From positions 2,816,001-2,880,000 of the forward strand of contig JASGHJ010000002.1 in assembly GCA_047602405.1 (NCBI GenBank): DNA of 64,000 nt, written 5' to 3'. A program made the position numbers and the translations under genes. Of the stretch, positions 59,319 to 63,131 are shown one piece after another. The first letter of the stretch is position 1. Each line of letters opens with the position of its first letter. The notes under the pieces were generated by a model, which saw only the letters and a list, made by a program, of their open reading frames with translations, was not told the DNA's origin and ran no database searches. Source of the DNA: Anaeromyxobacteraceae bacterium (GTDB taxonomy: Bacteria > Myxococcota > Myxococcia > Myxococcales > Anaeromyxobacteraceae).

Positions 59319-60761
59319 CAATGCCGATCGGTTAGCGCCAACCGATCGAGACCGATGGGGATTTTGGAGGCCGGGGCAGCAGAGTTGCCGCGGCGATCCA
59401 GGAGATCATGATGCGGCGATCGCCCGGAGGGCGATCCCATGCCGCGTCGCCCCGTTTCCGCCCAAGAGGACAGCTCGGGCGAGTTGCTGGATAGGTTCCA
59501 GGCGAGCCTCGATCCCGAATGGATCGAGGAAGCCCTTCAGGCCACCGGGACGGCCACCATCCGCCGGCGCCGCCTTCCAGCCGAGCAGGTCGTCTGGCTC
59601 GTGCTCGGGATGGGCATCTACCGTAACAAGCCCATCGCCGAGATCGTCGCGGAGCTCGATCTCGCGCTACCGGGGCGGCGCCCGCGCGCGGCCTCGAGTT
59701 CGGTGACCCAGGCGCGCGAGCGGCTGGGCAGCGAGCCCATCCGCTGGCTGTTCGAACGCAGCGCCGAAAAGTGGGCGCACGAGAGTGCGCGCCGGCACGC
59801 GTGGCGCGGGCTCGCCGTCTACGGCGTGGACGGCACGACCGTCCGTCTCCCGGACTCCGAAGCGAACCGCGATCATTTCGGCTACGCCGTGAGCTCCCGA
59901 GGCGAGAGCGCGTATCCGATGGCACGCCTCGTCACGCTGATGGCCCTCCGCTCGCACCTGCTGGCGGCGGCCCGCTTCGGTCCACAGTCGGGCAGCGAGA
60001 TCGCTCTCGCCAGGGAGTTGTGGCCGCTCGTGCCGGACGAGTCGCTGTGCATCGTGGATCGCAACTTCCTCTCGTCGGCGCTGCTCATCGGCATTGCGAG
60101 CCACGGGCATCGAAGGCACTGGCTCATCCGCGCGAAGAGCGACACGGCCTGGAAGGTAGTCCGCTCGCTCGGGCGCGGCGACTGGCTCGTCGAGAAGACC
60201 GTCCACCGGGACGCCCGCCGAGAGAACCCTGACCTCCCCGAGCGCTGGGAGATGCGGGCGATCCGCTATCAGCGGAAGGGCTTCAAGCCTCAGACCCTGC
60301 TGACGTCGATGACGGACCCGGAGGTTTACCCGGCGGCCGAGATCGTCGCGCTCTACCACGAGCGCTGGGAGATCGAGCTCGGCTACGACGAGGTCAAGAC
60401 TGTCATGCTCGACCGCGAGGAGACGACGCGCAGCAGGACTCCTCGCGGCGTCTCCCAGGAGCTCTGGGGCCTCGCCCTCGCGTACAACCTCGTCCGGCTC
60501 GAGATGGAGCGCATGGCCGAGGACGCCGGCGTCACGCCCGACCGCGTCAGCTTCAAGAACGCGCTCATGTACATCGAGCACGCCCTCCTAACGCTCTCCC
60601 TAGAGAGCGCGGGACGCATCCCGGAGCACCTCCGCCGCCTCCGGGAAGACGTCGTGCACTTCATCCTGCCGAAGCGACGGCTGCGGTCCTACCCGAGGGC
60701 CGTGAAGATCAAGATGAGCAACTACCCCCGGAAACGCCGAGGGCTTAAGTGAGCGGCATTG
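59319..60761 (+). mobile_element. IS4-family insertion sequence, 1443 bp
   Basis: TIRs CAATGCCGATCGGTTAG and (reverse complement) CAATGCCGCTCACTTAA. 10-bp target duplication GGGCTAGGCC at 59309-59318 and 60762-60771. Confidence 0.95.
59439..60752 (+). CDS. IS4-family DDE transposase
   Basis: VDGT, DRNF and YHERWEIE...K (YREK signature). Confidence 0.95.
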   Translation: MPRRPVSAQEDSSGELLDRFQASLDPEWIEEALQATGTATIRRRRLPAEQVVWLVLGMGIYRNKPIAEIVAELDLALPGRRPRAASSSVTQARERLGSEPIRWLFERSAEKWAHESARRHAWRGLAVYGVDGTTVRLPDSEANRDHFGYAVSSRGESAYPMARLVTLMALRSHLLAAARFGPQSGSEIALARELWPLVPDESLCIVDRNFLSSALLIGIASHGHRRHWLIRAKSDTAWKVVRSLGRGDWLVEKTVHRDARRENPDLPERWEMRAIRYQRKGFKPQTLLTSMTDPEVYPAAEIVALYHERWEIELGYDEVKTVMLDREETTRSRTPRGVSQELWGLALAYNLVRLEMERMAEDAGVTPDRVSFKNALMYIEHALLTLSLESAGRIPEHLRRLREDVVHFILPKRRLRSYPRAVKIKMSNYPRKRRGLK

Positions 60762-60852: not shown

Positions 60853-61890
60853 ATGGCCTCCTCCAACGTCACCGCTTCGAAGCTCCCGACCTTCGAGCTC
60901 GTCCTCCGGAACTACAAGAACTTCAACGCCCGGGCGACCCGGGACGCGCTGCTCGCCTACTGGCGGCACGTCGAGTCCGGCGGCCGGATGTTCTGGGCCG
61001 TCGCCGGCGCGATGTCCTCGGCGCAGCTCGGCATCACGATGGCGCCCGCCATCCGGGCCGGCCTCATCCACGGCCTCTCGGTGACCGGCGCCAACCTGGA
61101 GGAGTCGCTCTTCCGGCTCGTCGCCCACCACGCGTACAAGGACTTCCCGGACTACCGCTACTTCACGAAGGAGGACGACACCCGCATCCTCGAGCAGCGG
61201 ATGCGCCGGGTGACCGACACCTCCATCCCGGAGGACGAGGCGTTCCGCGCGGTCGAGAAGATCATCGTCCCGATGTGGACCGAGGCGACCGCGAAGAACG
61301 GCCGCCGCTTCTGGCACGAGTACTTCTACGAGCTCATCCAGAAGATCCCGGCCGCGGCCTACGAGGGCAACCCCGAGGAGTGCTGGCTGCTCGCCGCCGC
61401 GAAGGCGGGGCTCCCCATCGTCGTCCCCGGCCACGAGGACTCCACCTTCGGCAACATCTTCGCGTCCCACGTGAAGACCGGCGAGTGCTCGCCCCTCATC
61501 GTGAAGTCGGGCATCGAGTACATGGCCGCCTTCTACGACCAGTACGAGACCCTCTCCGAGGGCAAGGGCGTCGGCTTCTTCCAGATCGGCGGCGGCATCG
61601 CCGGCGACTTCCCGATCTGCGTGGTGCCCTCGATCAAGTACGACCTCTCGAAGCCGGTGAAGCCCTGGGCCTACTTCTGCCAGATCTCCGACTCGACGAC
61701 GTCCTACGGCTCCTACTCGGGCGCGACCCCGAACGAGAAGATCACCTGGGACAAGCTCACGAAGGACACCCCGATGTACGTGGTGGAGTCCGACGCGACC
61801 ATCGTGGTCCCGCTCATGCTGACCGCGCTCCTCGAGGCGAAGGCGCACCCCGCCGAGGCGAACGCCCTCATCAAGAGCGCAGGCTACTAG
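60853..61890 (+). CDS. Deoxyhypusine synthase-like protein
   Basis: AGAMS, TGANLEE, DSTFG, IGGG, GSYSGATPNEKITWDK, SDATI. Confidence 0.9.
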   Translation: MASSNVTASKLPTFELVLRNYKNFNARATRDALLAYWRHVESGGRMFWAVAGAMSSAQLGITMAPAIRAGLIHGLSVTGANLEESLFRLVAHHAYKDFPDYRYFTKEDDTRILEQRMRRVTDTSIPEDEAFRAVEKIIVPMWTEATAKNGRRFWHEYFYELIQKIPAAAYEGNPEECWLLAAAKAGLPIVVPGHEDSTFGNIFASHVKTGECSPLIVKSGIEYMAAFYDQYETLSEGKGVGFFQIGGGIAGDFPICVVPSIKYDLSKPVKPWAYFCQISDSTTSYGSYSGATPNEKITWDKLTKDTPMYVVESDATIVVPLMLTALLEAKAHPAEANALIKSAGY

Positions 61891-61919
61891 CTCATCCGCA
61901 GAATCGTCGGCATGCGGTA

Positions 61920-62215
61920 CCGTGGGAGCCAAACGGGCCTCCGCGACAGCGCTTGCTCGGACGGGTTTGAGACGGAACAGATCGCCGGAACCGTTGCTGT
62001 TCCATGGCGGTGACCGCCGCAGCAGGCCTGCGCGCGAGTTGCGCGTGTCGACGCCGTGCGCTGCGCGCACGTCGCCGACACACGCCCTCGTCACTTGGCC
62101 TGCATTGCTAGGATCCTGGTGGCCGTACCTCGCCCGTCGCTCGCTGCGCGCTGCTGCGGAGGCCCGTTTGGCTCTCGGGCGTGGTGGACTGACGTCGGCC
62201 GTAGATGCCGGGTGC
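61920..62215 (+). repeat. Structured element copy A (candidate ncRNA or ssDNA hairpin)
   Basis: Homologous to the reverse complement of 62293-62588. Perfect 19-bp closing stem 61926-61944 / 62156-62174. Confidence 0.85.
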
Positions 62216-62292
62216 CGATGAACGACTAACGATGGGCGATGGCCATTTGGCAGTTTGCCCGCCGCATCTTCTTCACCATCAGTTCCGCACTT

Positions 62293-62588
62293 GCACCCCA
62301 GCACCATCGGCCGACCTCAGTCCGCTCGTTCCGAGGGCGAAACGCGCCTCCGCAGCGGCGCGCAGCGAGCGACGGGCGAGGTTCCGTCCCCACATCTGGG
62401 CATTGCAGGCCAAGCGACGAGGGCGTGTGACGGCGCCTTGCGCGCAGCGCAAGGCGTCGTCACGCGCAACTCGCGTGCAGGCCTGCTGCCACGATCACCG
62501 CACTGCAACAGCAACGGTTCCGGCGATCGACACCGTCTCATACCCGTCCGAGCAAGCGCCGTCGCGGAGGCGCGTTTCGCCCCCACGG
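62293..62588 (-). repeat. Structured element copy B (inverted)
   Basis: Perfect 19-bp closing stem 62335-62353 / 62564-62582, with compensatory changes relative to copy A. Confidence 0.85.
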
Positions 62589-62601
62589 CAACGTTCGTCG
62601 T

Positions 62602-63131
62602 CTAGAGCTTGCCGGGAAGCTTCTTGGTGAGGTCCTCGAGCTTGCGGACCTGCTCGGGCAGGACCGCCTGGACGAGGTTGTGCTCGCGGGCGAGCGAGGC
62701 GAACTCGCTCGTCGACGCCCTGGCCCCGATCCACGGCAGGGCGTCGCCGGCGATGGCGATGGCGGAGAGCGCGACCCAGGCCGCCACGAGCGCCTTCGCG
62801 CCGGACAGGACCGCGCCGAGGGCGCGGTCGGCCGGGGCGCGCACGGCCCGGGAGAGGGCGGTGCCGCGGAGGGCGGCCGCGCCGAGGAGGCCGAGCAGGG
62901 AGGCCGCGCCCGCGAAGACGAGCGCCGGGGCCGCGGCGCGTGCCAGGGCGGCCGGGAGCGCGTTCTCGAGGCCCGCGGCGATGGGGGCCGCGAGGATCCG
63001 CGCGGCCAGGGCGGCGAGCACGTAGGCGACGAGCTGGATCACCTGCCGGAGCGCGCCCGACCCGGCGCCCGAGAGGGCCGCGACGAGGAGGAGCGCGAGG
63101 ATGACGAGATCGAGGGCCAGGGGCGGCTCAC
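62602..63131 (-). CDS. CvpA (colicin V production) family membrane protein
   Basis: LDLVILALLLVAALSG..SG..RQ and ADRALGAVL. The start is uncertain: the GTG at 63131 is one base out of frame, or CTG at 63120 is used. Confidence 0.8.

Follow-up and report, generated by a model that had tools for sequence, protein, structure and literature searches.

A dispersed family of large paired hairpins in convergent gene gaps of an Anaeromyxobacteraceae genome

Introduction

The gap between two convergent genes in a 64,000-nucleotide stretch of Anaeromyxobacteraceae DNA (hereafter, the window) holds one member of a family of giant paired hairpins, a genuine and conserved repeat for which we know of no earlier description and which behaves as a much enlarged REP heterodimer. 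The source genome (G000; 6.16 Mb, 74% GC, two contigs) carries 31 copies of a ~330-nt hairpin, of which one stands alone and the others form 15 inverted pairs, including a collapsed one. We explain the family best as a non-autonomous, REPIN-like mobile DNA, the halves of which would fold as single strands and be moved in trans by a single-strand nuclease of the host, most plausibly of the HUH (Y1) class; we put the chance that this reading is correct at about even.

The copying and persistence of REP-type repeats is a standing question in the field. A ten-fold larger, low-copy repeat with readable stem alleles and an informative sister genome makes individual steps visible, namely the arm-concordant exchange of modules, the stuttering of ends and collapse at an invariant helix.

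Results

The paired element at the window locus

Inverted arms in the window lie at 61915-62108/62400-62593 (87%) and 62117-62212/62297-62392 (80%), and each copy is closed by its own long stem (Table 1). A preliminary description, made from the sequence of the window, had proposed two diverged, inverted and self-folding copies between convergent genes, and this is confirmed by the arms, by the closing stems and by folding, which gives z-scores of -5.3 and -5.5 against dinucleotide shuffles for A(+) and B(-), and of -9.2 and -9.7 for the strands opposite. The three compensated pairs that it noted in the closing stem, and the other compensated pairs it named, are present in the family alignment. 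Its dimensions of ~296 bp per copy and a gap of 77 bp are superseded: each copy measures ~326 nt and comprises a ~20-nt outer leader, the hairpin and a ~57-nt inner tail, and because the copies run on into leader and tail the spacer is reduced to ~44 nt. The side-arm loop that was described as invariant does have the same sequence in both window copies, but other members of the family differ in it.

Both tails (window 62217-62228 and, on the minus strand, 62277-62288) contain a start codon, one further codon, Asn or Asp, and often a stop, in register in the two types; this start-X-N/D-stop pattern is present in many copies of the family. An IS4-family transposase is encoded directly upstream of the left flanking gene (window 59439-60752).

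Table 1. Parts of the paired element and its host genes in the window (window positions), with related loci elsewhere in the source genome (G000).
Feature	Position	Strand	Remark
Left host gene, deoxyhypusine/homospermidine-synthase-like	60853..61890	+	Under all curated cut-offs; ends 16 nt before A
Element A, 'a' type half-unit (leader, hairpin, tail)	61906..62231	+	Family alignment
Outer leader of A, variable	61906..61921	+	Counterpart tandemly stuttered at other loci
GTGG at closing-stem foot of A	61922..61925	+	REP-type tag; rule from the available part of PMC6006769
Closing stem P1/P1b of A, 5' arm	61926..61952	+
P2 5' strand and side arm of A, X type	61953..62021	+	Swapped en bloc in Y-type copies
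Helix P3 of A, near-invariant, 5' strand	62022..62028	+	Partner 62097-62103
Apical stem-loop P4 of A	62041..62085	+	Nested module traded between copies
P3 3' strand and adjoining segment of A	62097..62125	+	Weakly supported resemblance to opposite arm of sibling family
Closing stem of A, 3' arm	62148..62174	+
Inner tail of A, unpaired	62175..62231	+
Central spacer, low-complexity	62232..62275	.
Element B, 'b' type half-unit	62276..62602	-
End of tail B	62276..62287	-	IS1111-type position in four other pairs, unoccupied here
Closing stem of B, 3' arm	62335..62361	-
Closing stem of B, 5' arm	62556..62582	-
GTGG tag of B	62583..62586	-
Right host gene, membrane protein	62602..63042	-	Weak MarP-family match; stop abuts B
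IS1111-type element	G000:C2:480601-482070 and three more
Sibling paired-hairpin family	G000:C2:1207784-1208443 and 13 other loci
Cassettes	G000:C2:3644850-3645880, C2:7575-8640, C1:2167015-2168090, C1:316520-317560

Copies, pairing and genomic context

Copies were gathered from the source genome by BLAST and nhmmer, and an iterated HMM search of the genome added only stuttered end fragments to the 31. When gene gaps are defined by a purpose-built, codon-based gene caller, all 15 pairs fall in convergent gaps, a class that makes up 834 of 5079 gaps (16%); the singleton lies 3' of a stop codon in a co-directional gap. Every one of the 31 copies is downstream of a stop codon and in sense orientation, mostly at a distance of 6-113 nt, and the genes flanking the pairs have no common function. 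The occurrence of copies as inverted pairs with variable spacers, one of the tests set out in the preliminary description, is thus borne out by the 15 pairs. Exactly one 'a' type closing stem is found in 14 of 15 pairs and two in none (p = 0.0017), while pair partners are on average less alike (70% identity) than copies in general (74%); the pair of unlike halves, of ~700 bases, is therefore the unit.

The spacers are of low complexity, 40-270 nt long and G-rich on each element's own strand, and do not support the small 'cargo' that the gap had been suggested to carry; the larger ones result from later IS insertions, with an IS inside four spacers and a short IS end inside one. At four loci of the source genome the outer ends are repeated in tandem as stutters of two to five units, and one locus of its sister genome has a stutter of four. 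Of 32 copies, which are not independent of one another, 20 have GTGG at the base of the closing stem and 12 have other words there. Some 1.7 Mb around the probable origin lack both this and a second paired-hairpin family described below (G000:C1:1-1500000, with a KOPS-like polarity switch near C1 1.1 Mb).

The preliminary description did not recognise the element as a known family, and Rfam 15 agrees, giving only sub-threshold miRNA-like or hairpin matches at the window and none at gathering score in 10 further loci. Nor was a description of the element found in the literature, subscription journals, ISfinder and supplements lying outside the scope of the search. RNA runs, which consist of contigs without strand or ends, yielded one 74-nt contig piece in run X19 and small shares in X19 and X20, and no evidence of transcription.

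Conservation of stems and exchange of modules

Structure was assessed in 32 copies (29 from the source genome, excluding the collapsed pair, and three from the sister genome) at 57 hand-set pairs, where 93.8% of cells are paired. Cells with changes on both sides number 119, compared with 50.2±6.0 in shuffles; they are spread over 14 of the 57 pairs, a pair count no higher than shuffles give (65 of 500), and the few alleles shared among copies imply few independent compensation events. Compensated pairs adjoin mismatches that persist (columns 25-35, third P1 allele), and this juxtaposition favours selection on pairing over simple or wholesale copying of one arm from the other, which would erase the mismatches. 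The earlier proposal that selection maintains a long branched rod is supported.

Alleles of the left and right arms are concordant in 32 of 32 copies for P1, P1b, P2 and P4a, whereas modules that neighbour each other on an arm show loose linkage (normalised mutual information 0.36-0.61, with 14 haplotypes), and P2 and P4a alleles occur in every one of their four combinations. Together, arm concordance and loose linkage of neighbours indicate that the inner domain passes between copies as a single block whose boundary is the near-invariant helix P3, at which one collapsed copy of the sister genome is likewise fused. Exchange between folded strands and double crossover followed by selection would both be compatible with these data.

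Neither strand of the hairpin is favoured. Folded as RNA, the minus strand is the more stable one in 19 of 32 copies, and folded as DNA in 21 of 32. The G-U pairs that had been taken to favour A(+) and B(-) lose their weight across the family, since 60 of the 106 G-U cells on the plus strand are terminal in their helix and internal positions contain 46 G-U against 68 A-C cells, the latter being G-U on the other strand. Origin as a DGR product was rejected, 23 of 42 A-consensus columns being invariant in the 14 'a' copies; among the hypervariable columns, A occurs in 14 of 15, but also G in 12, C in 10 and T in 9.

Distribution and orthologous sites in a sister genome

By BLAST the element is present in one of 40 relatives and in one of 36 members of the genus; a covariance model, which spans the inner 97 positions only and was applied to 45 scored candidates per genome, finds it in two of 92 family genomes, the source genome included. 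An exact pattern search of a genome collection returned one locus, with the pair, in an Anaeromyxobacter sp., which we do not count as a further genome, and among 400 genomes of the phylum there is a single candidate match (G117). A loose pattern gave no convincing copy in metagenomes and viruses among the matches listed (at least 147, 119 metagenomic and 28 viral; best E 0.008), coverage of metagenomes being slight, and plasmid and phage collections contained no match to the element. Several candidates were discarded: weak BLAST matches in G038 and G039 and four viral pattern matches had no HMM support, matches in G003, G004 and G015 correspond to an IS end within one spacer, and core-pattern matches in G075 and G076 lie within coding genes.

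The sister genome (G010), in which the flanking genes are 91-98% identical, permitted comparison at 10 of the 16 loci. The element is absent at six, so that empty sites, another feature for which the preliminary description had asked, do exist; the window site measures 43 nt there as opposed to 713. Of the remaining four sites, one has the pair intact, one has it with part deleted, one has it collapsed and with the types on opposite sides, and one has a 60-nt footprint consisting of the two outer ends. No target duplication was found at any of the 10 orthologous loci compared. Flanks are replaced at empty sites, so the insertion points are inexact, and some of these sites may be losses rather than pre-insertion states. 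Copies in the sister genome are nearer to non-orthologous copies of the source genome than to their orthologues (77-89%), which indicates sequence turnover in place. The empty window site is also seen in two DNA runs, one of which has short contigs of the element.

An IS1111-type element in the tail

Four copies of a 1470-bp element with an IS110-family transposase and subterminal inverted repeats occur in the source genome, all at one position of the tail. The transposase matches NF033542 at 253.9 bits (cut-off 140). Relatives are found in seven of 400 phylum genomes at other targets, and none of these is inside the element described here. Like IS621 and IS1111 elements as presented in the available part of PMC11208160, which sets out the right-end guide arrangement of IS1111 and the targeting of REPs by IS110s, the tail IS combines an IS110-family recombinase, subterminal inverted repeats and a CT core with a long right end containing guide-like segments, and every copy is in one repeat; it differs in its target, which is not a REP but the unpaired tail within a pair of giant hairpins. 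Two right-end segments match the left and right target halves around the CT core in the source genome, and the guide-like segments vary with the target in relatives: a script showed this for L365 and L369, and inspection by eye for three more, L366/L367 and L373. This co-variation suggests that the IS1111-type element is likely to be guided by RNA to the hairpin tail, in which event nature would have adapted an IS1111 guide to a repeat that is new to it as a host, while in relatives guide and target change together.

A sibling family, cassettes and an Ssn-like locus

Scanning the genome for long hairpins revealed a second family of ~270-nt paired rods, with 22 copies at 14 loci, all 14 in convergent gaps. 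It resembles the element in its inverted pairs of unlike rods, convergent setting, swappable stems and G-rich tail, but the two show no HMM cross-match and have in common one short segment, which lies on the opposite arm. The ~29-nt half that bears P3 has a mean score of 20.7 compared with 18.9±0.3 when shuffled, and the best local match between the families (21 of 23 nt) is not above the best shuffled match; a circularly permuted core common to both is a possibility to which these scores lend weak support. Between the two halves of one sibling pair lies a TPR lipoprotein-like gene of low GC content (C2:278087-279625).

The genome also contains four inverted pairs of a hairpin with a four-helix-bundle (TIGR02436) gene, a cassette that is found in 18 of 91 family genomes. 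The cassette hairpin, of ~130 nt, masks the ribosome site of the four-helix-bundle gene. A sigma54-like motif links the cassettes to the sibling family and not to the element family. In another genome (G051:C2:1209196-1212547; L356/L337), two cassette units point towards one another with 2.4 kb of low-GC cargo between them, and identical transposases lie outside.

A small, Ssn-like GIY-YIG gene (G000:C1:1892872; locus L403, C1:1892400-1893300) lies between tandem, short REP-like hairpins. One motif of this repeat has 63 matches in the genome and abuts several element copies. Ssn nucleases with their SRM/NTS repeats, as described in the accessible portion of PMC11893778, likewise involve a hairpin repeat that is acted on as single-stranded DNA; the Ssn-like gene of this genome differs in being flanked by a different, short repeat rather than by the element.

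Discussion

How the element might move

The preliminary description had left a choice between a non-coding RNA and a single-strand DNA substrate. The second fits better and the first less well, because copies are dispersed, orthologous sites are found empty and collapsed, neither strand is preferred and an IS targets the repeat. On the reading that we favour, the halves would fold once single-stranded, and a host enzyme acting in trans, most plausibly an HUH (Y1) tyrosine transposase, would then cut them and insert them again; folded or converting copies could meanwhile swap nested modules, with arm-discordant products being removed. An enzyme of the HUH type acting in trans is preferred because of the GTGG foot, the heterodimers, the missing target duplication and the folding of both strands. 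The RAYT guide rule places GT[AG]G 0-2 nt 5' of the stem (PMC6006769), and REP heterodimers have been described (PMC3733652), in each case according to the part of the source that was available.

The element does not flank any of the 11 Y1/HUH genes of the source genome, the nearest being 15.8 kb away, and no end homology was found in the genome between the element and the Y1, Ssn-like, IS4, group II intron or four-helix-bundle loci. Of the recombinase, transposase or RT that the preliminary description proposed to look for near copies, the IS110-family element in the tail of four pairs is an example, while Y1 and RT genes are not flanked by the element. Six Y1 genes lie within 40 kb of an element locus, but we discard this proximity (p 0.009 with six genes, 0.003 with 11), as the threshold was chosen post hoc and the association did not hold in a threshold-free test (p 0.10-0.13 against convergent gaps, which is not significant; 0.027 by circular shift). 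The closest Y1 subfamily is confined to the source and sister genomes, at more than 90% identity, as expected of any lineage-specific gene, and no DUF559 gene was found in the genome. A branched half of ~330 nt with conserved unpaired junctions exceeds the needs of a RAYT substrate, and this counts against the reading that we prefer, as does the lack of the GTGG tag in 12 of 32 copies.

Alternative explanations

The position of the copies invites a domesticated role at gene ends, in which the element serves as the 3' UTR of both convergent genes, as mRNA stabiliser or terminator, or as a gyrase or cruciform DNA site that relieves head-on transcription. All 31 copies do lie behind a stop codon in sense orientation, four loci are kept in both species despite the turnover of their sequence, and compensation occurs beside kept mismatches; yet 90 of 92 family genomes and six of 10 compared sister sites manage without the element, the flanking genes lack a common function, orientation follows from the architecture of the pair, and no terminator T-run was found in the family. 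We consider a 3'-end role unlikely as the explanation of the element, while noting that it is compatible with mobility. A similarly small share of our confidence goes to a derivation from the cassettes by loss of the gene, which would make each half an Frpo/ssi-like single-strand promoter or primer site and provide one initiation site per strand. The four TIGR02436 cassettes share the inverted, two-type design and occur in 18 of 91 family genomes, and the start-X-N/D-stop tails could be read in the same sense. The sigma54-like motif occupies a fixed place in the 3' arm of seven of seven cassette hairpins and 17 of 20 sibling copies, but the element family scores no better than shuffles for it (11.2 vs 11.1) and has a loose version in 12 of 32 copies at mixed places. 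Moreover, no sigma70 site was found in the element family, which has no HMM match to the cassette, and only two of four cassettes are in convergent gaps.

A rod-like RNA, possibly with a circular intermediate and copied by a host RT in trans, would account for stuttered ends and low-complexity tails, and the genome possesses eight group II intron RT genes, none of them flanked by the element. Under this model the element and the sibling family are one rod opened at opposite ends, as the ~29-nt P3 segment, found in the 3' arm of the element and the 5' arm of the sibling family with pattern matches in both, would suggest. The complementary half shows no excess over shuffles, however, and a matrix trained on the sibling family ranks the best element copy only ninth genome-wide, while two other matrices fail. 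Without a ribozyme or intron domain, strand bias or adenine-specific variation, and with group II introns that insert elsewhere and have no ends in common with it, the element is an improbable RNA rod, and derivation from a group II intron was rejected on its lack of intron domains and of resident-intron ends. The preliminary description had named a decayed duplication as what would be left if covariation, transcript and mobility were all lacking; a last rival takes the element for a decayed local inverted duplication, its apparent covariation being an artefact of template switching between arms. Template switching in quasi-palindromes is an established process, and the collapse of palindromes at element loci demonstrates that arm-to-arm events occur; nevertheless, the 31 dispersed copies, the lower similarity of partners (70%) than of copies in general (74%) and the compensated pairs flanking persistent mismatches refute local duplication as the origin of the family and reduce this account to an extremely slight probability, although template switching may have seeded single stem alleles.

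Comparison with known repeats

Bacterial MITEs that fold over their whole length into a stem-loop, such as ERIC/IRU, RUP and bcr1, consist of one unit of 100-160 nt that ends in terminal repeats and in most cases has target duplications. The element is like them in being dispersed, non-coding and folded as a long hairpin, and unlike them in consisting of two different 330-nt hairpins with asymmetric ends and no duplication. Its origin as a MITE of a DDE insertion sequence was rejected, as the empty sites show no target duplication and no parent with a gene between the halves was found, later IS insertions excepted.

The closest resemblance is to the REP/REPIN-RAYT system, with which the element shares an extragenic inverted dimer with variable spacer, heterodimers, a position behind convergent genes, a possible counterpart of the GT[AG]G tag in the majority of copies, restriction to a lineage, persistence with diversity and use as an IS110 target. 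REPs are 20-40 bp (PMC3733652) and REPINs ~100 bp long, as far as the available texts go, among them 10.1101/2021.07.10.451892, on which the comparison also draws. The element departs from these in the size of its half (~330 nt, about ten times a REP) and unit (~700 nt), in its branched rod with swappable nested modules, in its presence at only 16 loci and in having no RAYT gene flanked by it; since size and a cognate RAYT are defining for REP/REPIN, we do not file it as a member.

A bolder and rather doubtful generalisation is that, in genomes of the Anaeromyxobacter type, element, sibling family and cassettes form a class of mobile paired rods that replicate by way of a folded single-stranded, possibly circular intermediate. 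The two families would then have the same core opened at opposite ends, a single crossover of folded rods would swap both arms of whatever lies past it, and an Avd-like protein would be a candidate helper. If true, this would mean a viroid- or retrozyme-like lifestyle for a bacterial chromosomal repeat; if either the permuted core or the link to the cassettes holds, myxobacteria would harbour an undescribed class of mobile single-stranded rods.

The resident group II introns have features of their own. Eight near-identical introns (G000:C1:439597 and seven others; L027-L034) are inserted at a conserved motif with ATG as its end, seemingly where genes begin, and one intron RT is internally deleted (C1:1301199).
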